The notes: generated by a model from the sequence alone, not told the origin. Positions 1 to 12,912 are shown, counted from the first letter of the stretch. The stretch is DNA of 64,000 nucleotides from Candidatus Eiseniibacteriota bacterium (GCA_965224245.1 OZ245046.1:576001-640000), one strand, 5' to 3'. A program made the numbers and translations.

Positions 1-101
1 TCGCGATCGTCGATCGATCCGATCGTGAGGACGGCGAGCCCGCATACGAGCGGTGGCGAGCCGGGGTGAGGTCGCGCCTGGAAGCGAGTGCGAGAGTATG
101 A
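1..101 (+). CDS. C-terminal fragment of a DUF1702-family enediyne biosynthesis protein (E3/UnbL-like), truncated by the window edge
   Basis: The frame starting at nt 3 reads AIVDRSDREDGEPAYERWRAGVRSRLEASARV* with TGA at 99-101. 'PAYE.WR..I/V' resembles the C-terminus of DUF1702 proteins. The stop overlaps the PKS ATG at 98 (ATGA). Not in the ORF track. Confidence 0.7.
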   Translation, partial: AIVDRSDREDGEPAYERWRAGVRSRLEASARV

Positions 102-3100
102 GCCGGTCCTCGACGAGACCGCTCCAGCCCCGGGGCTCGACACCGGGCGGGGCGGCCATCGCGGTCGTGGGCATGGCCTGCCGTTACCCGGATGCGGACT
201 CTCCTCAGGCGCTCTGGGAGAACGTCCTCGCCCAGCGCCAGTCGTTCCGGCGCATGCCGCGCGAGCGCCTGGACCTCGACGACCACTACTCCGACGACCG
301 CGGGGCGCCCGACCGCACCTACGCCACCATGGCCGCCGTGCTGGAGGGCTATGCGTTCGATCGCGTCGCGCATCGCGTCGCCGGCTCGACCTATCGCTCG
401 GCCGACCTGGCACACTGGCTCGCCCTGGACGTGGCGACCGATGCGCTCGCGGACGCGGGCCTGCCCGCCGGGGACGGGCTTCCGCGCGATACCACCGGCG
501 TTCTGATCGGCAACTCCCTGACCGGCGAGTTCTCCCGCGCTGCGACGCTCCGGGTGCGGTGGCCGTACGTGAAGCGCGTGGTCGGCGCGGCACTCGCCGG
601 CGGCGGCTGGTCGGACGAGGACGTCTCGTCGTTCCTCCGCCGGCTGGAGGTGTCGTACAAGGCTCCGTTCGCCCCCGTCGGGGACGAGACGCTCGCCGGC
701 GGGCTCTCCAACACGATCGCCGGACGCATCTGCAACGCGTTCGACTTCAAGGGCGGTGGCTACACGGTCGACGGCGCCTGCAGCTCGTCGCTCCTGGCCA
801 TCGCCAACGCGTGCTCGGCGCTGACGGTGGGCGACCTCGACGCGGCGATCGTGGGGGGCGTGGACCTGAGCCTGGATCCGTTCGAGATCGTCGGGTTCGC
901 GAAGGTGGGCGCGCTCGCACCGGATCGGATGCGCGTCTACGATGCACGCTCCGCCGGATTCTGGCCGGGCGAGGGATCGGGCATGCTGGTCCTGATGCGG
1001 CTGGCGGACGCGATCGCGACCGGGCGGCGTGTCCTGGGCATCATCCGTGGCTGGGGCATCTCGTCCGACGGCACCGGCGGCATCACCCGGCCCGAGGTGG
1101 CCGGGCAGCGCCTGGCCATCGCGCGCGCCTACGCCCGTGCGGGCTACGGAATCGACACGCTCGGCTACGTCGAGGGGCACGGAACCGGAACCACGGTCGG
1201 CGACGCCACCGAGATCGACGTCCTCGGCGGCGCGCTGCGAGAGGCGGGGGCAGGGCGTCGCGTGGCCCTCGGCTCGATCAAGGCCAACATCGGGCACACG
1301 AAGGCGGCCGCCGGCGCCGCGGGCTTCCTGCGCGCGCTCCTGGCCGTGGGACACGGCATCGTGCCGCCGCACGCCGGCACACGTACGCCCCATCCGTCGC
1401 TCGAGGCCGGCGACGCGCCGCTCCGTCTTCCGAGAGAGCCGGAGGGTTGGGACGCCGCCTCGCGCCGCGCCGGCGTCAGCTCGATGGGCTTCGGCGGCAT
1501 CAACGTGCACATCACGCTGGAGGCAGACGGAAGCGACGCTCCGCGCGGGCGTCGCCTCGCGCCGCGTACCGCGCGACTCGCACGCACGCCGCAGGACGTC
1601 GAGCTGTTCGGGATCACCGCCCCGACCCGGGAGGCGCTCGGACGTCGGCTCGAGTCGCTGCGCTCGCAGTGCGAGACGCTCGCATTCTCCGAGCTACCCG
1701 ACCTTGCGGCCACGCTGGCGCGGGAAGCCGCACGGGGGCCGCACCGCGTCGCGTTGATCGCCGACTCGCCGGCCGAGCTCGCCCGCCGCATCGACGACTC
1801 GCTGGCACGGCTCTCGATGGACGGCCCGGTGGTGGACGGATCGGGTGGGCTCTTCATCGGGTCCGGACCCGCACCGCGCATCGGCTTTCTCTTTCCGGGA
1901 CAGGGCTCGCCGTCCCGGCCCGACGGCGGCTCGGTGCGCCGGCGCTTCGAGCGCGCGGCGGCCCTCTACGAGCGCGTGGGCAGAGACGGGCTGTTCCCCG
2001 CCGTCGAGGATCCCACCGACACCGCCCTGGCACAGCCGGCCATCCTCGCGGCGACGCTGGTCACGCTCGAGGTGCTGGATGCGGTCGGGGTGCGGGCACG
2101 CGCCGCGCTCGGGCACAGCCTGGGCGAGATCGCGGCGCTGGCGTGGGGGGGCGCGCTGTCGCACGAGGGTGCGCTCCGACTGTCGGCGGCGCGCGGGCGC
2201 GCAATGGCGAGCGTGCCCGGACCCGCCGGCGCGATGGCGTCGATCGCCGCGTCTCCGGAGGACGTCGCCGCGTGGCTCGCGGAGCTCGATCTCGCGGCCG
2301 GCGCCACCGGCGACGCCACGGCACCCGGAGCGGTGCCGGATCGGGGAGGCGCCGTAGGTCACGGGGTCGTCATTGCCGGCTACAATGGTCCCGCGCGAAC
2401 CGTCGTGTCCGGTCCGAGCGAGGCGGTGGACGCGTTCGTCGAGCGGGTGACCGCACGCGGCGCCACCGCCACGCGGCTTCGCGTCTCGCACGCGTTTCAT
2501 TCCGGGCTGATGGCGCCCGCGAGCACCGGCCTCGCGGCGGCCATCGCCGCCGAGTCGTGGCGGCCGTGCTCGCGCGTGGTCGTGTCCACGGTCACCGGCG
2601 ACCGCGTTCCCGAGCGTGCGGACGTCGGCGACCTGCTGCGTCGCCAGCTCACCGAGCCGGTTCGGTTCTCCGATGCCCTTTCCGTGCTCGCGCGCGACGT
2701 GGATCTCCTGATCGAGGTCGGACCCGGGACGTCGCTCGCGACCCTGGCCGCAGCGCAGGTCTCGACACCGGTGGTGGCCACCGACGGATGTGGGGATTCG
2801 CTGCGCGGACTTCTGGGCGCGATCGGTGCGGCGTGGGCGCTCGGGGCATCCGTGGATCTCGAGTCGCTCTTCGGCGACCGCGCCGTGCGGCCGTTCGATG
2901 GGCATCGTCCCCACGCGTTTCTGGCGAACCCGTGTGAGTCCGCGCCCCGACCCGGTGCGCCGGACGGGTCGCCGGTCACGCCTTCCCACGCCGGGACGCT
3001 GCCCGCGCCCGCGATTCCGGCGGCGGCGAGTCCGCCGGGACACACCGGCGGGGGGGGCGCGACGCTCGACGAACGAGTCGATGATGCCCGCGATGAAGGG

Positions 3101-6100
3101 CTGCCGGACGAGAGCGGCACGGGTCCCGCTTCGGCCCTCGACGTGGTGCGCACGCTGGTCGCCACTCGCGCCGAGCTGCCGCTCGAGTCCATCGGCGAGG
3201 ACGATCACGTGCTCGACGACCTCCGGCTCAACTCCATCGTCGTGGGTGAGATCGTCACCAACGCCGCGCGCCGCCTCGGACTCGACGCCCCGACGGCGCC
3301 GGCCGAGTTCGCCGACTCGACCGTCGGCGAGATCGCGGCCGCCCTGGCGGCGCTTCTGGAAGACGGTCCGCGCGGACGCGATCGATCGCTCGGGCTCGCG
3401 CCGGACGACGAGATCCCCGAGGGCGTCTCGACGTGGTTTCGGACCTTCGCCACCGAGTGGGTCGAGGCGCCGGCGCCCGCGAGCGCCCCGCTACCGGACG
3501 TCCGGTGGGAGGTGCTGGGGGACCCGACCGATGGGCTGGTGGCCGAGCTCACCGCGCGTCTCGGAGAGGCCGGCTCCGGCGATGCCGAGGCACCCGGTGG
3601 AACGCTCGTCGTCCTTCCGGCACGGGTGTCCGACGACGACGTCGTCGCCGCCGTGGATGCGGCCGGCGCGCACCTCGGACGCGGAGGAACGCACTTCGTT
3701 CTGGTCCAGCGCGCGGACACGCTGGCGAGCCTCGCCCGGACGCTCCACCTCGAGGACCGGCGGGTCACGACCCGCATCGTCACCGTGCCCGACGGCTCGC
3801 CCCGCTCCGCCCGCGCGATCCTGGCGGAGATCGCCGGAGACGGGCAAATCGTCGAGGCGCGCTACGAGTCCGATGGGCGCCGGGTCGTTCCCGTTCTCGG
3901 GCACGTTCCGATCGGGCGCGATGGAGCGAGCGCCGATGGGTCCGGCACGGTCGAGCCGGCCGCCGGGCTCGGTGCCGACGACGTCCTGCTCGTGACCGGC
4001 GGAGGCAAAGGCATCGCCGCCGAGTGCGCGCTCGCGATCGCCGCCAAGACCCGGACCGCGCTGCTGCTGATCGGACGCTCGGATCCGGCACACGACCCCG
4101 TGCTCGCGGGAAACCTGGCGCGGATCGCCGGCGCCGGGTGTCGCGCACACTACGCGCGCGCCGACGTCACCGACCCGGCGGCGGTCGCGAACGCGGTGGC
4201 CGAGGGAGCCCGCGTGCTCGGCCCGATCACGGGCGTCCTTCACGGGGCGGGGCGAAACGAGCCGTCGCGGATTCGCATGCTCGATCGAGACCGGGTGCTC
4301 GCGACGCTCGCCCCGAAGACGCGGGGCCTCGAGCACGTGCTCGCGTCCGTGGACCCCTCGTCGCTTCGGCTGCTGGTGACGTTCGGATCGATCATCGCCA
4401 CCGCCGGTCTGGCCGGAGAGGCCGACTATGCGATCGCCAACGAGCGCCTGGCGGCGATGACCGCGGCGTTCGGGCACGCCAATCCGACGTGTCGCTGCGT
4501 GTGTCTGGGATGGTCCATCTGGTCGGGAACCGGAATGGGAGAGCGTCTGGGCCGCGTCGAGACGCTCGCGCGTCAGGGGGTCGTTGCGATCACGCCCGAC
4601 GCCGGAGTCGACGTCCTCGGGCGTATCCTGCGAGCACCGGCGCTTCCCACGCACCTCGTGGTGACCGGCCGGTTCGGAGACCCGCCGACCGTTCGAACCG
4701 AGCCCGGCGAGCTGCCGCTCCGGCGTTTCCTGGAGCGGCCGCGTGTGCACGTCCCCGGCGTCGAGCTCGTCGCCGACGCGACCGTCGATCCCGCGCACGA
4801 TCCGTATCTGGACGACCACGTTCTCGACGGGGTCCGGGTGTTCCCCGCCGTGATGGGCCTCGAGGCGATGGCCCAGGTCGCGATGGCGCTGGCGAGGCGC
4901 GACGACCCGCCGGCCTTCCACGACGTCCGGTTCGATCGTGCCGTGACGATTCCCGAGACGGGTGCGACGTTGCGGATCGCCGCACTCGCGGACGTCGACG
5001 GCGCACACCCGGGCGCGGGTGTGATTCGTGTCGTCGTCAGGTCCTCCGAGACGTCGTACGCCGTCGATCACTTCACCGCACGCTGCCGGTTCACCGACGC
5101 GCCGCCGCCCGACGTGGATCCGATCGCGAACGGACGCCCGGCCCGGTTCGATCTCGGGGATCGTCTGTACCGCGAGATCCTGTTCCAGCGCGGTCGCTTC
5201 GCCCGCGCCGGAGGGTACGACGACGTGCAGGCGCGACGTTGCGTCGGCCGGCTCACGGCCGCGCCGCCGGTCGGCTGGTTCGGTGCGTTTCTGCCCCAGG
5301 CGCTCGTGCTGGGCGATCCCGGCCGTCGCGATGCCATGCTCCACGGGATCCAGGTCAGCGTTCCGCACCGCCGGCTGCTTCCGGTGTCGGCGACCGAGAT
5401 CGTGTTCCGGCCGTGCGGCGGCGCCGCGGAGCCCGGCGCGCCTCGGAGCGCATCGGACGCGGCGGTGTTCCGGGCGGTCGAGACCGCGCACCGGGGGGCC
5501 GACTACACCTACGACGTCGACGCCGGCGAGGAGCGCGGAGTCGTCGTCGAGTGCTGGCGCGGACTCGTCTTCCGGGCCGTGGGCCCGATACCCCTGCCCG
5601 AGACGTGGCCCCGCCCCTTGCTCGGCTCGTATCTCGAGCGGCGGATCGCCGAGACGTGGCCCGACCGCGTCTCGCACGTCGCGGTGGATCGATCCGGGAC
5701 GTCGACCGAGGACATCCTGCGCGCCGCGATCGCGGCGTCGACACACGTGCACCGGCGGCCCGACGGGAAGCCCGTGCTGTCGAACGGGACGCCGGTGGCG
5801 ATCTCGACGCACGGTCCGCTCGCGCTCGCGGTCGTCGCGGCCGATCCGGCACCGGTCGGGTGTGACGTCGAGGCGGTCGTCCCGCGTGACCGAGACGCCT
5901 GGCGGGCGCTCGTCGGGGATCGCGGCTGCGAGGTCGCGGAGCTCGTGTCCATGCGTGTCCCGGAGCCGTTCGACGCGGCGGCGACGCGCGTGTGGTGCAT
6001 CAAGGAGTCCGTGCGCAAGGCGGGGGGAACCTGGAATGAGGTGCTGAGCGTGACGTCGGTCGACGATGCCGCCTGGGTTCGCTTCAGGGCCGGATCGTTC

Positions 6101-6235
6101 CAGGTGGCGACGCTGCGCGTCGTGCTGGAGCCGGACCCGGATCTCGATGCGGGCGGCACAGGGTGCGGCGGTCCGATGATCGTCGCGGTGCTCGTCGAAG
6201 AACGCGGCTCGGAGGCGGCGCGTGAAGGCGTATGA
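98..6235 (+). CDS. pksE: Enediyne iterative type I polyketide synthase (KS-AT-ACP-KR-DH-PPTase)
   Basis: KS: GGGYTVDGACSSS, EGHGTGT, GHTKAAAG. AT: GHSLG and HAFHS (malonyl-type). Central ACP: DDLRLNSIVVGEIV. KR: TGGGKGI...DYAIAN. DH: YLDDHVLDGVRVFPAVMGLEAMAQ. C-terminal PPTase: GCDVE...WCIKESVRK. This domain order is diagnostic of PksE. Start moved from 53 to ATG 98 because of the ATGA coupling. Confidence 0.95.
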   Translation: MSRSSTRPLQPRGSTPGGAAIAVVGMACRYPDADSPQALWENVLAQRQSFRRMPRERLDLDDHYSDDRGAPDRTYATMAAVLEGYAFDRVAHRVAGSTYRSADLAHWLALDVATDALADAGLPAGDGLPRDTTGVLIGNSLTGEFSRAATLRVRWPYVKRVVGAALAGGGWSDEDVSSFLRRLEVSYKAPFAPVGDETLAGGLSNTIAGRICNAFDFKGGGYTVDGACSSSLLAIANACSALTVGDLDAAIVGGVDLSLDPFEIVGFAKVGALAPDRMRVYDARSAGFWPGEGSGMLVLMRLADAIATGRRVLGIIRGWGISSDGTGGITRPEVAGQRLAIARAYARAGYGIDTLGYVEGHGTGTTVGDATEIDVLGGALREAGAGRRVALGSIKANIGHTKAAAGAAGFLRALLAVGHGIVPPHAGTRTPHPSLEAGDAPLRLPREPEGWDAASRRAGVSSMGFGGINVHITLEADGSDAPRGRRLAPRTARLARTPQDVELFGITAPTREALGRRLESLRSQCETLAFSELPDLAATLAREAARGPHRVALIADSPAELARRIDDSLARLSMDGPVVDGSGGLFIGSGPAPRIGFLFPGQGSPSRPDGGSVRRRFERAAALYERVGRDGLFPAVEDPTDTALAQPAILAATLVTLEVLDAVGVRARAALGHSLGEIAALAWGGALSHEGALRLSAARGRAMASVPGPAGAMASIAASPEDVAAWLAELDLAAGATGDATAPGAVPDRGGAVGHGVVIAGYNGPARTVVSGPSEAVDAFVERVTARGATATRLRVSHAFHSGLMAPASTGLAAAIAAESWRPCSRVVVSTVTGDRVPERADVGDLLRRQLTEPVRFSDALSVLARDVDLLIEVGPGTSLATLAAAQVSTPVVATDGCGDSLRGLLGAIGAAWALGASVDLESLFGDRAVRPFDGHRPHAFLANPCESAPRPGAPDGSPVTPSHAGTLPAPAIPAAASPPGHTGGGGATLDERVDDARDEGLPDESGTGPASALDVVRTLVATRAELPLESIGEDDHVLDDLRLNSIVVGEIVTNAARRLGLDAPTAPAEFADSTVGEIAAALAALLEDGPRGRDRSLGLAPDDEIPEGVSTWFRTFATEWVEAPAPASAPLPDVRWEVLGDPTDGLVAELTARLGEAGSGDAEAPGGTLVVLPARVSDDDVVAAVDAAGAHLGRGGTHFVLVQRADTLASLARTLHLEDRRVTTRIVTVPDGSPRSARAILAEIAGDGQIVEARYESDGRRVVPVLGHVPIGRDGASADGSGTVEPAAGLGADDVLLVTGGGKGIAAECALAIAAKTRTALLLIGRSDPAHDPVLAGNLARIAGAGCRAHYARADVTDPAAVANAVAEGARVLGPITGVLHGAGRNEPSRIRMLDRDRVLATLAPKTRGLEHVLASVDPSSLRLLVTFGSIIATAGLAGEADYAIANERLAAMTAAFGHANPTCRCVCLGWSIWSGTGMGERLGRVETLARQGVVAITPDAGVDVLGRILRAPALPTHLVVTGRFGDPPTVRTEPGELPLRRFLERPRVHVPGVELVADATVDPAHDPYLDDHVLDGVRVFPAVMGLEAMAQVAMALARRDDPPAFHDVRFDRAVTIPETGATLRIAALADVDGAHPGAGVIRVVVRSSETSYAVDHFTARCRFTDAPPPDVDPIANGRPARFDLGDRLYREILFQRGRFARAGGYDDVQARRCVGRLTAAPPVGWFGAFLPQALVLGDPGRRDAMLHGIQVSVPHRRLLPVSATEIVFRPCGGAAEPGAPRSASDAAVFRAVETAHRGADYTYDVDAGEERGVVVECWRGLVFRAVGPIPLPETWPRPLLGSYLERRIAETWPDRVSHVAVDRSGTSTEDILRAAIAASTHVHRRPDGKPVLSNGTPVAISTHGPLALAVVAADPAPVGCDVEAVVPRDRDAWRALVGDRGCEVAELVSMRVPEPFDAAATRVWCIKESVRKAGGTWNEVLSVTSVDDAAWVRFRAGSFQVATLRVVLEPDPDLDAGGTGCGGPMIVAVLVEERGSEAAREGV

Positions 6236-6647
6236 GTACCGGCACCTCGTCGGCTTCGCGGAGACGAACGTCGTGGGGAACGTCTACTTCTCCCACCACG
6301 TCGCCTGGCAGGGGCGCTGTCGCGAGGCGTTCCTCCGCGAGCACTGTCCGTCGTTGCTCGACGAGCTCACGTCGGGGCTCGCGCTGGTCACGCTCAGCTG
6401 CCGTTGCGAGTACGTGTCCGAGGTGCTCGCGCTCGAAGAGGTGATCGTGCGCATGACCCTCGCGGAGTCGTCGCAGAACCGCGTCGCGATGCGGTTCGAC
6501 TACGTGGTCGTGCGGGATGGCACCGAGCGGATCGTGGCCCGCGGCGGGCAGGAGATCGCGTGCATGCGCCGGACCGCCGGCGGCCTCGAGGCCACGAGCG
6601 TTCCCGTCGAGCTGTCCCGGGCGCTGGAGCCGTACCGCTCGCGCTGA
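6222..6647 (+). CDS. Enediyne hot-dog-fold thioesterase (E10; SgcE10/CalE7/DynE7-like)
   Basis: YEYRHLVGFAETNVVGNVYF...WQGRCRE.FL motif; overlaps the 3' end of pksE, as in enediyne cassettes. Confidence 0.93.
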   Translation: MKAYEYRHLVGFAETNVVGNVYFSHHVAWQGRCREAFLREHCPSLLDELTSGLALVTLSCRCEYVSEVLALEEVIVRMTLAESSQNRVAMRFDYVVVRDGTERIVARGGQEIACMRRTAGGLEATSVPVELSRALEPYRSR

Positions 6648-6671: not shown

Positions 6672-7652
6672 TCAGTCCACCGGTGCGCCGGCGACGATGA
6701 GTCGGTCCACGGCCGACGTCACGTCGCGGAGCGCGACCGCGCCCGCCCCTCGGCCATCCGGCGCCACGATCGCGAGCGTCCCCGTTCGACGATGAAACCA
6801 CTCACCGACGCGCCCTGCTGCCCGTCCGTCCCAGTTGCCGAAGATCACGACGGTCGGACGATCCGACATCTGGGCCACGTGTCCGGGGGCGCAGTCGTTC
6901 GTGACCACGACGTCGCTGGCGCGGACGACCGCGGCGATCGTCGACAGCGGGGCCGAGCACACCGTCGATGAGATGCTCCCGAGCTCGGACGCGGCGATCT
7001 GGCCGGCCATGTGCGCCTCTCGAGGTCCGAGCACGAACACGAAGCGGATCCCGGGCTCCGTCGCCCGCCGATCCGCGCCGTACGCGAGGAACCGCTCGAG
7101 TCCCCAGTGCTTGCGGTCCTCGGAGCCGCACGGCATCAGGCAGTGGAGCGGACCCGCCGTGGGCGACGTCCACGAGCTCCTGCGGGCCAGCGCATCCACC
7201 GAGACCGGGATGCCGGCCCGGGGCACCGGGACCCCGAGGGGCTCGAGGACGTCCAGGAACGCGAGCGCCCGGTAGCGACTCTTGTCGAGCGGAACGGTGT
7301 GCGTGAAGAACAGGGCGTTGACTCGATGTGCGAACGCGACCCGCACGCGCGCACCGGTGAGGGCGAGCGGAATGTGGGTGCGCAGCGACTTGCGCCGGAA
7401 CGAGACCACCGCGTCTGGACGGCCGGCGACGAGTCGTCGCGTGAGCGCGATCGGGTCTCTCGTGTACACGTGATGCTCGTGGGCCACGCCGGCCTCCACG
7501 AGCGCCGCGCCGACCGTCGTCGTGGAGTGAAGCGTCACGTGGCACTCGGGATGGCGTTCGCGCAGGGCGTGGAGCATCGGCAGGTGCATGGACACCGCCC
7601 CCAGAAAGGGGCGGTTCTGCAGGACGACGGCGACGCGTCGGAGCCGCGTCAT
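6672..7652 (-). CDS. Glycosyltransferase family 9 (ADP-heptose:LPS heptosyltransferase-like)
   Basis: N-terminal 'LGAVSMHLPMLHALRERHP', 'KHWGLERF' and 'VVTNDCAPGHVA' match GT9 motifs. GAGGAG precedes ATG 7652. Confidence 0.8.
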   Translation of the reverse strand: MTRLRRVAVVLQNRPFLGAVSMHLPMLHALRERHPECHVTLHSTTTVGAALVEAGVAHEHHVYTRDPIALTRRLVAGRPDAVVSFRRKSLRTHIPLALTGARVRVAFAHRVNALFFTHTVPLDKSRYRALAFLDVLEPLGVPVPRAGIPVSVDALARRSSWTSPTAGPLHCLMPCGSEDRKHWGLERFLAYGADRRATEPGIRFVFVLGPREAHMAGQIAASELGSISSTVCSAPLSTIAAVVRASDVVVTNDCAPGHVAQMSDRPTVVIFGNWDGRAAGRVGEWFHRRTGTLAIVAPDGRGAGAVALRDVTSAVDRLIVAGAPVD

Positions 7653-7783
7653 GGCACTCCTCGATGATCCCGCCGGGCCGCGGGACGGTCGATGTGACGA
7701 TGTGATCGGAGCAAGCCGCCCGATGGTGGCATCTGCCGGTCGTCCCGGCAATCGCCCTGTCTCCGTGGCGCCGTCATCCGGGC

Positions 7784-7817
7784 AAACGAAGAGCCCCGGC
7801 GCGGTGGGCGCCGGGGC
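7784..7817 (-). terminator. Intrinsic terminator of the 7858-8574 gene
   Basis: Perfect 10-bp stem GCCCCGGCGC/GCGCCGGGGC (7793-7817), followed on the minus strand by TCTTCGTTT. Confidence 0.6.
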
Positions 7818-7857
7818 CGGCATCAGCGCTCTCCGAACCGGGGAGAGCCCGGACGGA

Positions 7858-8924: not shown

Positions 8925-9344
8925 CTACCACCGACCGAGAGGCACCCGGATGCGACCCGGCCCGGTCAGGAGCAGCGCGACGTAGACCCCCAGAAGCTCG
9001 AGCGCGTGCGAGGCCCCCTTCCACCCGGCCCCTGACGCGTCCTCGGGCAGACTCAGGTGCCGGATGACGGCCACGAGCATCGTGAACGCGAGCATCGCCG
9101 CCGACGGTCGGAACAGAACGCCGAGCACCAGGAGGGCCGAGCAGACCACCTCGGCGAACATGGCCATGAAGCCCCAGAAGACCGGTGCGAACCGGATGCC
9201 GAGGTTCGCCATCTGGCCGCCCAGTCCTTCCCACCGCTCGGGACCTCCCTGGAGCTTGCCCCAGCCGTGAAAGACGAGCATCGACAGACCGATCACCAGC
9301 CTCAACACGAACAGACCGATGTCGCGGCGCCGGGCGTTCTCCAT
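8925..9344 (-). CDS. DoxX family membrane protein
   Basis: 'LRLVIGLSMLVFHGWGKL...AEVVCSALLVLG..R...LLTGPGR' pattern; GGAGG RBS before ATG 9344. Confidence 0.88.
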   Translation of the reverse strand: MENARRRDIGLFVLRLVIGLSMLVFHGWGKLQGGPERWEGLGGQMANLGIRFAPVFWGFMAMFAEVVCSALLVLGVLFRPSAAMLAFTMLVAVIRHLSLPEDASGAGWKGASHALELLGVYVALLLTGPGRIRVPLGRW

Positions 9345-9545
9345 GTGGTGTCCTCCAGGGGGCGTCGGGCCGGCGAGTGGACGCCGGCAATCGAATCGCG
9401 GACGGCGCCGGCCCGTTCGCGTCCGGACCGACCACCGAGTTCGGCGGAGTCTAGTCGGCACGGGTCACGGTGGCAAACGACGCCGCGCGAGACGGGTGTT
9501 GCGCGCGCTCGTACTTGCTTGTGTTCGACCGCGGTCCCGCGCACC

Positions 9546-10607
9546 ATGGCGGCCATGGAGCTTCTGGTACCGATGGCGATCGCCGCGATCGCGCTCGCGC
9601 TCGTCTTCGACTTCACGAACGGGTACAACGACTCCGGCAGCCTCGTGGCCACGATGGTGGCATCGAGGGCGCTGTCGGCTCGGCGGGCCGTCGTCCTGGC
9701 GGGCGTGTTCGAGTTCCTGGGGCCGATGCTGGGTGGAACGGCGGTCGCGAACACGGTCGGGAAGATCCTGATCCTGGACGCGACAGGCACGCTGGTCCCG
9801 GTCGTCCTGGCCGGGGTGTCCGCCGCGATCTTCTGGAACGTCATCACCTGGTACGTCGGCATCCCGTCCAGCTCATCGCACGCGATCTTCGGAGGGCTCG
9901 TCGGCGCGGCGCTCGTGGCCACCGGAGACGCCAGCGCCGTGGACTGGGGGATCGAAGGCTTCGACGCACGACATCCGCGTGGAGTCGCGGGTGTCGCGAT
10001 GACGCTGTTCGTGTCGCCGTTCGTGGGGTTCGCGATCGGGTTCGTGTTCCAGAAGGTCACCTCGCGGCTGCTGCGCGGCGCCACGCCACGCGCGAACCGG
10101 GTACTTCGCCGGCTGCAGCTCGTGACGGCATCGGCGCTGGCGTTCAGCCACGGCACCAACGACGCGCAGAAGACGATGGGCATCATCACGGTCGTGCTCG
10201 TGTCCGCGGGGTGGGCGACGGCCTTCGAGGTTCCGACCTGGGTCAAGCTGGGGGCGGCCACGATGATCGCGGCCGGTGCGATGACCGGTGGATGGCGGAT
10301 CATGAAGACCGTGGGATCGGGGATCTTCCGCGTGCGGCCGATTCACGGGTTCAGCTCCCAGGGGGCCTCGGCGGCCATCATCCTGTCCAGCGCGCTGCTC
10401 GGCGGTCCGGTGTCGACCGCGCACGTCGTGTCGTCGTCGGTGATGGGCGTCGGCAGCGCCGCCCGTCGGCGAGCCGTCCGCTGGGGCCGCGTCCGGGAGA
10501 TTCTCGTCACGTGGGCGATCACGATCCCGGCGAGCGCGGCGCTCGCCGGCCTCCTGTCGTGGTGGCTGAGGCTGGTGCTCGGAACACGAGGAGGCGCGGG
10601 TGTCTGA
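9546..10607 (+). CDS. pit: Inorganic phosphate transporter, PiT family
   Basis: FDFTNGYND, GIPSSSSHA, FSHGTNDAQKTMGII and PVSTAHV motifs. Start is 9546 or 9555. Confidence 0.92.
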   Translation: MAAMELLVPMAIAAIALALVFDFTNGYNDSGSLVATMVASRALSARRAVVLAGVFEFLGPMLGGTAVANTVGKILILDATGTLVPVVLAGVSAAIFWNVITWYVGIPSSSSHAIFGGLVGAALVATGDASAVDWGIEGFDARHPRGVAGVAMTLFVSPFVGFAIGFVFQKVTSRLLRGATPRANRVLRRLQLVTASALAFSHGTNDAQKTMGIITVVLVSAGWATAFEVPTWVKLGAATMIAAGAMTGGWRIMKTVGSGIFRVRPIHGFSSQGASAAIILSSALLGGPVSTAHVVSSSVMGVGSAARRRAVRWGRVREILVTWAITIPASAALAGLLSWWLRLVLGTRGGAGV

Positions 10608-11223
10608 GACGAGGTGGTGGCGGCGGCTGATCTCGTCGGAGCCGGACTTCTTCGCGCTGCTGTCGAAGCACGCATCCGTGGTGGATGAAGGCGTGAAGGC
10701 ACTCCATCGATACCTGAGCCAGCGAGACGAGCGCGACGCGATCCGCGTGCGCCAGCTCGAGAAGGATGCGGACGACCTCCGCCGCGAGCTGCGAGGCGAG
10801 ATCTTCGACGCGTTCTCGACCCCGATCGACCGGGAGGACCTGTTCTACCTGAGTCGGCGTCTGGACGAGGTCATCAACTACGCCAAGCACACGCTGAGAG
10901 ACGTGCAGATTCTCGACACGCCCACCACGAGCCTCACCCGGGAGATGTCCGCGGCGCTGGTCGAGGGCTCGGGGCACCTGCTGGAGGCGATCCGGCACCT
11001 CCCGGCCGCCGACGCCACCTGTCACCACCACGCCCGGGCGGCCAAGAACTGCGAGAACGACGTGACGAAGCTCTATCCGCGGGCGCTCAAGGCCCTCTTC
11101 GAGGGAGAGGACGTCAAGGAGATCCTCAAGCAGTGGGAGCTCCTTCGCAATCTGGACATGACGGCCGATCGCATCGACGAGGTCGCCGACGTGATCATGC
11201 ACATCGTCATCAAGGAGGCGTAG
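10600..11223 (+). CDS. DUF47 / PhoU-like Pit accessory protein
   Basis: 'LEKDADDLRR...FSTPIDREDL..LSRRLDEV'; overlaps the pit stop. Confidence 0.9.
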   Translation: MSETRWWRRLISSEPDFFALLSKHASVVDEGVKALHRYLSQRDERDAIRVRQLEKDADDLRRELRGEIFDAFSTPIDREDLFYLSRRLDEVINYAKHTLRDVQILDTPTTSLTREMSAALVEGSGHLLEAIRHLPAADATCHHHARAAKNCENDVTKLYPRALKALFEGEDVKEILKQWELLRNLDMTADRIDEVADVIMHIVIKEA

Positions 11224-11226
11224 CCG

Positions 11227-12912
11227 ATGGACGCGCTCGTCATGTCGTTGCAGATCGTCGGCGCCCTCGGGGTCTTTCTCTACGGTCTGACCGTGATGAG
11301 CGACGGACTCCAGAAGGCCGCCGGCGACGAGCTCCGAGCCATCCTGCGGAAGGCGACCGAGAACCGGTTCCTGGCCACGCTGTCGGGGTTTCTCGTGACC
11401 TGCGCCGTTCAGTCGTCCAGCGTGACCACCGTGATGGTGGTCGCGCTGTGCAGCGCCCAGCTCCTGACCTTGAGCCAGAGTCTCGGGGTGATCTTCGGCG
11501 CCAACATCGGCACGACGACGACGGCCTGGCTGGTCAGCCTCCTCGGCTTCAAGGTGAAGATCTCGGCGTTCGCGGTGCCGATGGTGGGGATCGGGTTCTT
11601 CTCGCGGTTCATCAAGCGATGGAGCCTGCCCCACAAGGTCGGGCAATCGATGGTCGGCTTCGGGTTGCTCTTCCTGGGCCTTCAGCTGCTGAAGGACGGG
11701 ATTCCCGACGTCAAGGACTCACCGGCCGTGATGGAGTGGATCGCCAGGATCGAGCCGAGCGGCTTCCTGGGGATCGTGAGCGCGATCCTGTTCGGCACCG
11801 TGATCACGCTGATCGTCCAGTCCTCGAGCGCCGCGATGGCCATCACGCTGACCGCCGCCGCCAAGGGATACATCGACTTTCCGACGGCGTGTGCGATCAC
11901 GCTGGGCGAGAACATCGGGACCACGATCACGGCCGCCCTGGCCTCGATCGGGGCGCCGCCGCTGGCCCGCCGGGCCGCTCTGGGGCACTTCCTGTTCAAC
12001 TTCCTGGGCGTCATCTGGCCGGTCGCGTTCTTCGGCGCCGTCGTCGGGGTCGTCGATCGCCTGGTGCCGGGCGACCCGTTCGGGACGAGCGAGTCCGCGA
12101 TGCTGCTGGCGATTCCCACCCACATCGCCGCGTTTCACACGTCGTTCAACGTGGTCAACACGGCGCTCTTTCTCCCGCTGGTCAAGCAGCTGGAGCGGCT
12201 GATCTGTCGGCTCCTGCCCGAGCGCGGCGATGCGGTGGTGGACGACCACGAGCTGGTCTATCTCACGACGCCGTTTGGTGCGACTCCGGAGCTGGCCATC
12301 CCGAGCGCCCGCCAGGAGGTCGATCGGATGGCCGGCATCACGCTGAAGATCATGGCACGCATCCGGCAGGCGCTGGTCGCGTCGGGTGCCGAGCGAACCC
12401 GGTTGCTCCAGAAGATCCAGGCTCACGAACGAGCGACCGACGTGCTGGAGCACAAGATCACCCATTATCTGGCGGCTCTCGTCCATGGTCAGCTCTCGTC
12501 GTCCGCCACGCGTTCGGCGCTCTCCCTGTTGAGCATGATCAACGATCTGGAGCGCATCGGTGATCACGGCGAGAAGTTCGCGCTCGTGCTGGAGCGACAG
12601 AACGGATCGATCACGTTTTCGGAGGAGGTCCTCGAGGAGCTTCAGGAGATGGCCGAGCTCACGGCGCTGAATCTCCAGGCGATGCGCCGGTCGATCCTCC
12701 ATCCGGAGGGGGACCCGCTCATCGCCGCGCGCGAGCGTGAGAACGCGCTCAACGACATGCGAAATCGGCTGCGCCGCGCCCATCTTCGCCGCATGGAGCA
12801 GGGCCGGGTCGATCCCGTCTCGGGGATCGCCTTCATGGACATCGTCACGGGCTTCGAGAAGATGGGTGATCACTCGTACAACGTGATCGAGGCCACGGTC
12901 GGACTCAAGTGA
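11227..12912 (+). CDS. Na+/Pi cotransporter (NptA/YjbB family) with C-terminal PhoU repeats
   Basis: Two QSSS...G(A/E)NIGTT repeats; PhoU-like 'DLERIGDH' and 'FEKMGDH'. Confidence 0.92.
   Translation: MDALVMSLQIVGALGVFLYGLTVMSDGLQKAAGDELRAILRKATENRFLATLSGFLVTCAVQSSSVTTVMVVALCSAQLLTLSQSLGVIFGANIGTTTTAWLVSLLGFKVKISAFAVPMVGIGFFSRFIKRWSLPHKVGQSMVGFGLLFLGLQLLKDGIPDVKDSPAVMEWIARIEPSGFLGIVSAILFGTVITLIVQSSSAAMAITLTAAAKGYIDFPTACAITLGENIGTTITAALASIGAPPLARRAALGHFLFNFLGVIWPVAFFGAVVGVVDRLVPGDPFGTSESAMLLAIPTHIAAFHTSFNVVNTALFLPLVKQLERLICRLLPERGDAVVDDHELVYLTTPFGATPELAIPSARQEVDRMAGITLKIMARIRQALVASGAERTRLLQKIQAHERATDVLEHKITHYLAALVHGQLSSSATRSALSLLSMINDLERIGDHGEKFALVLERQNGSITFSEEVLEELQEMAELTALNLQAMRRSILHPEGDPLIAARERENALNDMRNRLRRAHLRRMEQGRVDPVSGIAFMDIVTGFEKMGDHSYNVIEATVGLK

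Follow-up and report, generated by a model that had tools for sequence, protein, structure and literature searches.

An enediyne-type polyketide synthase operon of non-canonical make-up in an uncultured member of the Eisenbacteria

Minimal cassettes for enediyne-type polyketide synthases (PKSEs) are exemplified by SgcE with SgcE10 and E3-E5, and by CalE8 with CalE7. Such a cassette, of which DynE8 with DynE7 is a further example, comprises the PKSE, a thioesterase and three conserved genes of unknown function (PMC9992847, in excerpt). Here, a related locus was analysed at the start of a 64,000-nucleotide stretch of DNA (the window, G000:C1:576001-640000) from a Candidatus Eiseniibacteriota bacterium, in which an initial annotation had recognised an E3-like gene, PksE and E10 and had proposed a 'new enediyne or polyene chemotype'. 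The locus is an enediyne-type polyketide synthase (PKS) operon that is intact but departs from the canonical gene set, in the genome of an uncultured member of the Eisenbacteria. Since E5 is missing, the set falls short of the canonical five-gene core, and it would be premature to assume that an enediyne is made. As judged from the sequence, it probably encodes a functional variant pathway with a polyene-derived, exported product. The most likely product would be the PksE/E10 polyene, modified by E3 and E4 and exported, so that of the two chemotypes proposed, the polyene-derived one is more likely than an enediyne.

The locus shares with the actinomycete minimal cassette the PKSE domain order, the catalytic residues, E10, a DUF1702 E3 and an E4 relative nearby. 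It differs in that E5 is missing and E4 is divergent, TPR-tailed and 6 kb away. The window PksE is 42-47% identical at full length to actinomycete PksEs and lies outside their clade. It is accompanied by a transporter of the MMPL type and a secreted protein of the family designated fam772; in 80 actinomycete loci, neither was found up to 6 kb from PksE. The initial annotation had advised looking upstream for tailoring and resistance genes; the scan of genes from about -20 kb to +13 kb turned up no family of oxygenases, halogenases, self-resistance proteins or other tailoring enzymes.

Non-actinomycete PKSE cassettes, such as those of Herpetosiphon (L026), cyanobacteria, Verrucomicrobiota and Acidobacteriota, are of one family with the window locus, group in its part of the PksE tree, and likewise carry E3, PksE and E10. 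The open reading frames of 45 related loci and of the window region were clustered, giving counts that are lower bounds, as many loci are cut by contig ends. PksE occurred in 46 loci, E10 in 37, E3 in 34, E5 in 29, E4 in 28, an MMPL-type transporter in 12 and fam772 in 5. The usual cassette order was E3-E4-E5-PksE-E10, whereas the window locus reads MMPL-E3-PksE-E10, with no E5 genome-wide. E3-PksE-E10 layouts without E5 were also found in L023, L143 and L144.

Genes were called by third-position GC content and scanned against Pfam and NCBIfam. The genes and domains concerned are listed below, negative coordinates lying upstream of the window.

-8519..-5937, + strand: E4-like FG-GAP/UnbV_ASPIC protein with a TPR tail, 860 amino acids (aa), from the E4 profile
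-5562..-3997, - strand: fam772, secreted, 521 aa, divergently transcribed (G000:C1:570438-572003; L003:14338-15903)
-3712..-1022, + strand: HAE3/MMPL (RND) transporter, 896 aa, ending 154 bases before E3
1..101, + strand: last 33 codons and stop of the E3 gene (DUF1702/UnbL-type, 322 aa; PF08012)
98..6235, + strand: pksE, iterative type I enediyne-type polyketide synthase, 2045 aa, from Pfam domain order, catalytic residues and homology
155..1378, + strand: ketosynthase (KS), aa 20-427, with Cys228, His361 and His400 (PF00109, E = 1.9e-52; PF02801, E = 3e-29)
1886..2779, + strand: acyltransferase (AT), aa ~597-894, with GHSLGE Ser674 and HAFH 798-801 (PF00698)
3143..3346, + strand: central acyl carrier protein (ACP), aa 1016-1083, with Ser1046 (PF00550, E = 2.3e-5, 25 bits against a cut-off of 20.8)
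3986..4525, + strand: ketoreductase (KR), aa 1297-1476, with TGGGKGIA, Ser1431 and Tyr1444 (PF08659, E = 6.2e-26)
4760..5584, + strand: dehydratase (DH), aa 1555-1829, with His1574 (HxxxGxxxxP) and Asp1745/His1749 (PF21089, PF14765)
5852..6103, + strand: C-terminal phosphopantetheinyl transferase (PPTase), aa 1919-2002, with GCDVE and WxxKESxxK (PF01648, E = 4.1e-4)
6222..6647, + strand: E10, hot-dog fold thioesterase of the DynE7/CalE7/SgcE10 type, 141 aa, from a PDB sequence search

PksE is a single uninterrupted frame of 2045 codons, with the Pfam order KS-AT-ACP-KR-DH-PPTase (C-terminal, ACPS-type) on one polypeptide. The KS carries the motifs DGACSSS, EGHGTGT and NIGHTK, and the AT part (aa 499-945) matches the DynE8 AT structure 4amn with E = 3.4e-53. 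In a 63-row alignment, the catalytic motif residues of the window PksE were those of the family majority throughout the 14 motifs. The KS cysteine, both KS histidines, the AT serine, ACP serine, KR tyrosine, DH histidine and DH aspartate were each present in 62 of 62 relatives. Residues of the PPTase motifs were kept in 56-60 of 62, with aspartate in 60 and glutamate and lysine in 59. The sole motif oddity was at the ACP serine, LRLNS here against LHLNS in 61 of 62 relatives. The PPTase scored 20.8 bits with PF01648, below the curated 25, and the AcpT model NF007676 matched it at E = 1.8e-8. Domain order and alignment together bear out the earlier description of an intact PksE with all catalytic motifs, a central ACP and a C-terminal PPTase. 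An Ala/Gly-rich insert of 25 aa in the AT (aa 731-755, window 2288-2362) is missing from the nearest relative, the metagenomic P0018.

E10 gave full-length matches to the solved thioesterases DynE7 (E = 1.9e-41), CalE7 (9.5e-41) and 4i4j, an 'ACP-polyene thioesterase' (1.1e-37), and also matched PF13279 (E = 1.5e-10), in agreement with the thioesterase noted after PksE in the initial annotation. Starting from a GTG codon, the gene shares its first 14 bases with the end of pksE. The protein retains a WQGRCRE stretch, whose arginine we take to be the catalytic arginine of CalE7. The E3 label was also right, though the evidence for it comes from beyond the window edge: the start codon is at G000:C1:575133, 867 bases upstream (whole gene -867..101), and the gene product matches PF08012 (DUF1702) at E = 2.4e-103 over profile positions 3-318 of 319. 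It is the sole DUF1702 match in the genome, one of only five among 206 species genomes of the phylum with a match over the cut-off. The TGA of E3 (99-101) overlaps the ATG of PksE (98-100) as ATGA at 98-101, an arrangement by which E3 is predicted to be translationally coupled to PksE.

The genome contains 22 UnbV_ASPIC matches. Scored against a profile of 30 cassette-linked E4 proteins, the copy 6 kb upstream reached 388 bits in one domain, whereas the best domain of the other paralogs scored at most 68 bits. Canonical E4s scored 944-1109 bits, and the divergent E4s of L036 (Ktedonobacteraceae) and L141 (same phylum) 523 and 389 bits. A canonical-E4 profile at E <= 1e-60 matched 4 of the 206 phylum genomes (G046, G161, G160 and G000, the genome of the window), all DUF1702-positive. 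Because the cluster copy scores far above its paralogs and the matches fall only in DUF1702-positive genomes, the gene is thus a putative E4, divergent but cassette-specific.

E5 is a membrane protein of ~323 aa encoded directly upstream of PksE in 29 of the 46 loci, and its members are distant RnfD-family proteins (PF03116, E = 1.4e-3 to 6e-14). No E5 (UnbU-type RnfD-like membrane protein) was found from -25 to +15 kb of the window locus. The best match in the whole genome to a 13-row E5 profile scored 98.7 bits (C1:4429995-4430567), against 493, 325 and 268 bits for the true E5s of the phylum mates G046, G132 (itself a row of the profile) and G160 (on another contig); additional matches of 76-94 bits occurred in G161, G160 and G132. 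A search by tblastn and a 30-sequence E5 profile gave one relative in the genome, at C1:4429698-4430768, ~30% identical and scoring 91 bits. This RnfD-like paralog is 31% identical over 290 aa to the divergent E5 of L036. Matches of 80-105 bits were also found in 8 of 25 DUF1702-negative relatives searched. Since relatives without DUF1702 hold equal-scoring copies, the 98.7-bit gene is taken as a background paralog and not a bona fide E5; as judged by these profiles, the genome is without a true E5. Of the E4 and E5 homologs that the initial annotation had expected, a putative, divergent E4 is therefore present upstream and E5 is not.

Some further features of these gene families were observed. 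The RnfD-like gene (PF03116, E = 8.7e-17), the nearest E5 relative in the genome, overlaps a DUF2330 gene, with which it forms a conserved pair, and adjoins an ECF sigma factor gene (G000:C1:4429797-4432053; L145:7797-10053). In G160, E4-like and E5 genes lie together at C26:11707-15426 and E3-PksE-E10 at C16:10001-30000 (L143); either the cassette can exist as two separate parts or the contigs mark a break in the assembly. L026 (Herpetosiphon aurantiacus DSM 785) and L034 (a Candidatus Deferrimicrobium metagenome-assembled genome, MAG) have two E4-E5 pairs beside a single PksE, and therefore the E4/E5 module appears to duplicate as a unit.

The transporter gene upstream of E3 encodes a protein with the two-lobed RND topology and with MMPL, Patched and sterol-sensing domain matches (Pfam MMPL, 72.8 bits against a cut-off of 20.5). 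It matched the HAE3 model TIGR00921 at E = 1.1e-44, with 152.6 bits against a cut-off of 351.9, and the HpnN model TIGR03480 at E = 1.9e-19, with 69.2 bits against 751.9. Domains and topology are therefore shared with the HAE3/HpnN RND transporters, which move hydrophobic lipids out of the inner membrane, while the scores fall far below the cut-offs; by these measures, the protein is a relative of HAE3 and HpnN outside those named subfamilies. Orthologs of 36-41% identity lie beside the cassettes in L141, L142, L006, L033 and L045.

The five fam772 loci are that of the window, L141 and L142 from the same phylum, and L006 and L023 from the Verrucomicrobiota. In all five, fam772 adjoins E3 or the MMPL gene, with differing gene orders, and four of the five DUF1702-carrying genomes of the phylum encode a member. 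The genome studied has two copies, the paralog lying at G000:C1:315219-316943. The protein consists of a signal peptide, two tandem repeats of ~200 aa without a Pfam family, and a type IX sorting tail. The tail scored 24.9 bits with TIGR04183, the type A sorting domain of the type IX secretion system (T9SS; cut-off 23), and aligned with the C-terminal domains of PorU and PorZ (Z = 10.6 and 8.3). An AlphaFold model built from 35 sequences had a mean pLDDT of 89.6. Foldseek against the PDB matched only the C-terminal Ig-like tail (FlgD) of the whole model. In a VIA-align wide comparison with 48,161 chains, repeat 1 resembled PagL (Z = 10.6, 133 residues, root-mean-square deviation 3.2) and repeat 2 NspA (Z = 10.0, 140 residues), with further matches at Z = 8.3-9.5 to OmpW (8.8), the OprF barrel, designed barrels and avidins (8.3-8.4). 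By these matches, an eight-stranded up-and-down beta-barrel is predicted for each repeat. Chromoprotein enediynes have apoproteins, CagA, NcsA and the like. The likeness of fam772 to these would be one of role only: it is secreted, beta-rich and encoded beside an enediyne-type PKS, and could by analogy shelter a labile, hydrophobic chromophore, but it consists of two predicted eight-stranded barrels and a T9SS tail, and no resemblance to these apoproteins in sequence or fold emerged, though no search was aimed at one. Proteins with fam772 repeats occur with up to seven copies and look like an undescribed secreted barrel-repeat family. A terminator-like hairpin lies directly past the fam772 stop.

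Full-length PksEs from each phylum, including those of actinomycetes, share 42-48% identity with the window PksE, and the nearest relative found, P0018, shares 51%. Trees were made with MAFFT (FFT-NS-2) and FastTree; their sole outgroup, L046, is distant and the branches are long, so that deep placement is soft. L047, L048 and L051, meant as further outgroups, were excluded for having 22-62 stops in translation. Thirty actinomycete loci, hand-picked for spread, were kept and 50 of the 80 left out, as were the partial PksE loci L016-L018, L025, L027, L030, L035 and L041-L045. In a 64-row tree (1869 columns), the window PksE stood on a 0.76 branch outside both the actinomycete (1.0) and the non-actinomycete (0.94) clades. 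Trees of 104 rows, made by adding the 40 best metagenomic matches, were computed for full-length, KS-AT and C-terminal partitions. The window PksE was paired with P0018 in the full-length (0.98) and KS-AT (1.0) partitions, and fell within the non-actinomycete assemblage, or at its base, in all three (full-length 0.85, KS-AT 0.93, C-terminal 0.84). In all three it was outside the 30-row actinomycete clade, which includes the loci of Streptomyces globisporus and Salinispora pacifica. Both of these organisms make 9-membered enediynes. The window PksE has a long branch (0.70-0.76 substitutions per site) within the non-actinomycete assemblage and is therefore not assignable to the 9- or 10-membered type; the trees contained no labelled 9-membered, 10-membered or anthraquinone-fused PKSEs, and sub-clades are unnamed. 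PksEs of four phylum mates fell in three separate places, as expected of separate acquisitions. This points to horizontal acquisition of the cassette, independently of the four other cassette-bearing Eisenbacteria genomes. The PksE of L159, a record titled Candidatus Melainabacteria MAG, lay deep in the actinomycete clade as sister to the Actinomycetota MAG L164 (1.0), which suggests a mis-binned contig or a recent transfer.

Several points weigh against a variant pathway that dispenses with E5 and exports a polyene derivative. The E4-like gene lies at a distance of 6 kb, with an opposite-strand gene between, and its score is far under those of canonical E4s. The canonical-E4 scan scored five candidates per genome and at E <= 1e-60 missed the G132 copy, a divergent one. 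At a genome completeness of 97.4%, an E5 gene may lie in unassembled DNA. E5 could also be dispensable, or replaced by the RnfD-like paralog at 4.43 Mb; its need for an enediyne core is inferred solely from conservation in the minimal PKSE cassette (PMC9992847, in excerpt). The 64-row tree pairs the window PksE weakly (0.48) with an actinomycete MAG, its position varies with sampling, and FastTree support on long branches is unreliable. For fam772, the barrel matches are to membrane barrels, from which no function follows. The family is large (599 representatives at E <= 1e-30) and occurs in 31 of the 206 phylum genomes (the unpublished G072 counted), 27 of them DUF1702-negative, and most of its members are thus not PKSE-linked. 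The cassette genome G160 has no fam772 at the threshold used, and the copy in G161 is on another contig.

Given these points, the locus might belong to a genuine enediyne producer, with a 9-membered, 10-membered or new core, in which E5 is dispensable or substituted by the RnfD-like paralog and fam772 is a stabilising apoprotein. The locus has E3, PksE, E10 and an E4 relative, each of them intact, and E5 is itself a distant RnfD-family protein with one paralog in the genome, ~30% identical to E5s. That paralog, however, is 3.85 Mb away, beside DUF2330 and sigma factor genes, and relatives without a cassette hold an equal-scoring copy. The scanned flanks (-20 kb to +13 kb) yielded no tailoring or self-resistance family. 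The window PksE also lies outside the actinomycete clade, whereas all 11 enediyne KS domains in MIBiG are within the actinobacterial lineage (PMC10308959, in excerpt). We consider a genuine enediyne producer unlikely.

A decaying remnant, in which E5 and perhaps tailoring genes were lost after transfer and no useful product is made, would account for the missing E5, the divergent and displaced E4, the long PksE branch and the rarity of DUF1702 in the phylum (5 of 206 genomes). Against decay, the 2045-codon frame is open with all catalytic residues kept, and the start and stop overlaps are preserved. Third-position GC in the cassette genes is 0.87-0.95, like that of the neighbouring genes. The E5-less E3-PksE-E10 layout also recurs in L023, L143 and L144, although the L143 genome has an E4-like/E5 pair on another contig. 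Decay seems to us distinctly unlikely, somewhat more so than enediyne production.

It might further be asked whether a polyunsaturated fatty acid (PUFA)-type or other iterative PKS has been mislabelled by domain similarity. The top NCBIfam rows for the whole PksE were generic PKS and PfaA models, all under their cut-offs, and KS-AT chains of modular PKSs outscored DynE8 in the PDB list. However, the NCBIfam matches include no model specific to enediynes and so do not discriminate; the modular chains rank above DynE8 because its solved structure covers no more than an AT fragment. The PKSE domain order, the DynE7/CalE7-type thioesterase and the ATGA-fused, single-copy DUF1702 gene are marks of a PKSE cassette. 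Moreover, the DH-PPTase part of PksE (aa 1480-2045), searched in a set of 5.8 billion proteins, had 1632 relatives at E <= 1e-30 among 8000 candidates scored, many of them named 'enediyne polyketide synthase' by the Joint Genome Institute. Mislabelling is accordingly very improbable.

The locus lies within a 6.45-Mb contig of a 6.94-Mb genome in 27 contigs. RpoB (aa 300-800) was compared with a large protein set, in which unnamed proteins reached 80-86% identity; named proteins made up 14 of the 120 matches listed, 13 from Candidatus Eisenbacteria/Eiseniibacteriota and one from Latescibacteria, with identities of 68-72% throughout. Records of named organisms gave at most 62% identity (Ignavibacteria 62%, Zixibacteria 58%, Calditrichales 57%). 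A SprA-type type IX translocon is encoded in the genome (SprA, 540 bits summed against a cut-off of 200), while PorV-like barrel matches were under the cut-off. By its RpoB, the host is a member of the Eisenbacteria and not an actinomycete, which agrees, as does the translocon, with the diderm FCB-group candidate phylum first proposed from the surrounding genes. Logan contigs from runs X1 and X2 (one sample) bridged the fam772, MMPL, E3, PksE, E10, GT9 and phosphate transporter genes with 0-1 differences, and short identical pieces of the locus were present in a third run, which belongs to the same study but to a different sample. The bridging argues weakly against a chimera, as X1 and X2 may be the source sample. 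GC content is ~70% across the window. The joining of an actinomycete fragment to an Eisenbacteria genome, for which the slightly higher GC of positions 1-6000 (0.73-0.75) might speak, is almost certainly to be discounted, given the long contig, the flanking genes with genome-typical FlgD_ig/T9SS tails, the Logan contigs across both borders, the non-actinomycete affinity of the closest PksE relatives and the lack of MMPL and fam772 in all 80 actinomycete loci. Mislabelling and artefact together remain highly improbable, and the initial reading of a probable non-actinomycete lineage stands.

A scan of species-representative genomes gave 41 PksE loci, in Cyanobacteriota, Verrucomicrobiota, Planctomycetota, Acidobacteriota, Chloroflexota, Pseudomonadota, Deferrimicrobiota and Actinomycetota; cassettes with full-length PksE were found in at least eight phyla besides the Eisenbacteria. 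In excerpt, PMC10308959 links phyla outside the actinobacteria with 160 enediyne KS domains from metagenomes, from which no compound is known, and reports no product for any enediyne-type PKS cassette outside Actinobacteria; PMC4902038, likewise in excerpt, mentions the enediyne PKS of Herpetosiphon and cites a total of 87 clusters, of which few are non-actinobacterial. Thus, the premise of the initial annotation, by which the core cassette is characterised mainly in actinomycetes and some cyanobacteria, was too strong if read as a confinement to those groups. A non-actinomycete setting for a PKSE is neither rare nor unreported, and the locus is a further member of a large, recognised, uncharacterised group rather than a first. 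No literature was found on a characterised non-actinomycete PKSE product or on a link between PKSE and MMPL. Eisenbacteria are not among the phyla named for enediyne-type genes in the excerpts of PMC10308959 and PMC4902038, and PMC7298704, on Eisenbacteria and biosynthetic clusters, does not use the word 'enediyne'. What is new here is a natural E5-less layout with a recurrent exporter and barrel protein, a useful and testable lead.

Beyond the operon, two sets of genes lie downstream and a further secreted protein upstream.

6672..7823, - strand: GT9-like glycosyltransferase gene, convergent, forming the downstream boundary (PF01075, E = 4.4e-10)
9057-12912: phosphate transporter genes (PHO4, PhoU_div, Na_Pi_cotrans)
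Upstream of the E4-like gene, - strand: secreted protein of 998 aa with beta-helix, LVIVD repeats and a FlgD_ig tail

The GT9-like and phosphate transporter genes had a counterpart beside the cassettes in 0 of 45 related loci, and the cluster is therefore taken to end at 6647. The GT9-like gene was considered as a tailoring gene and rejected, being convergent and without such a counterpart. Three secreted proteins with FlgD_ig/T9SS-type tails are encoded within 12 kb upstream of the operon (window -15307..-3997; L003:4593-15903): one BNR/sortilin-like, one with beta-helix and LVIVD repeats, and fam772. A BLAST search with the fam772 tail found dozens of such tails genome-wide. A promoter and terminator scan gave one promoter-like and one terminator-like site, no excess over shuffled sequences.

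For the favoured pathway, a sequence of steps can be proposed. PksE would prime its own ACP through the C-terminal PPTase and build a conjugated polyene thioester iteratively from malonyl units, as suggested by its domains, their intact motifs and what is known biochemically of characterised PKSEs. By homology, E10 would release the chain as 1,3,5,7,9,11,13-pentadecaheptaene, the compound shown for PKSE/thioesterase pairs from four actinomycete clusters (PMC9992847, in excerpt). Going by genomic context, E3 and the divergent E4 may then act on the released chain; the same excerpt gives the roles of E3, E4 and E5 as unknown in every system. As the canonical membrane partner E5 is missing, a hydrophobic polyene-derived product would be expected rather than a canonical 9- or 10-membered core. 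The HAE3/MMPL pump, again from its position, could move this product from the inner membrane towards the outer membrane or the medium. In the most speculative step, likewise drawn from context, the secreted tandem-barrel protein fam772 may bind it.

A broader proposal is that diderms (Eisenbacteria and Verrucomicrobiota) run an E5-independent branch of enediyne-PKS chemistry, in which a dedicated HAE3/MMPL pump passes a product derived from a polyene or an enediyne to the tandem beta-barrel protein; the latter, secreted by the type IX system, would carry this product or present it on the cell surface. We regard this as quite improbable; if true, pump and barrel would be a Gram-negative counterpart of the chromoprotein enediynes, assembled from unrelated parts. 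The locus adds Eisenbacteria to the phyla carrying enediyne-type PKS chemistry. Compact, intact and without E5, it offers a small test case for the action of E3 and E4 on the heptaene in the absence of E5, and is suited also to asking whether the pump and the barrel protein handle the product.

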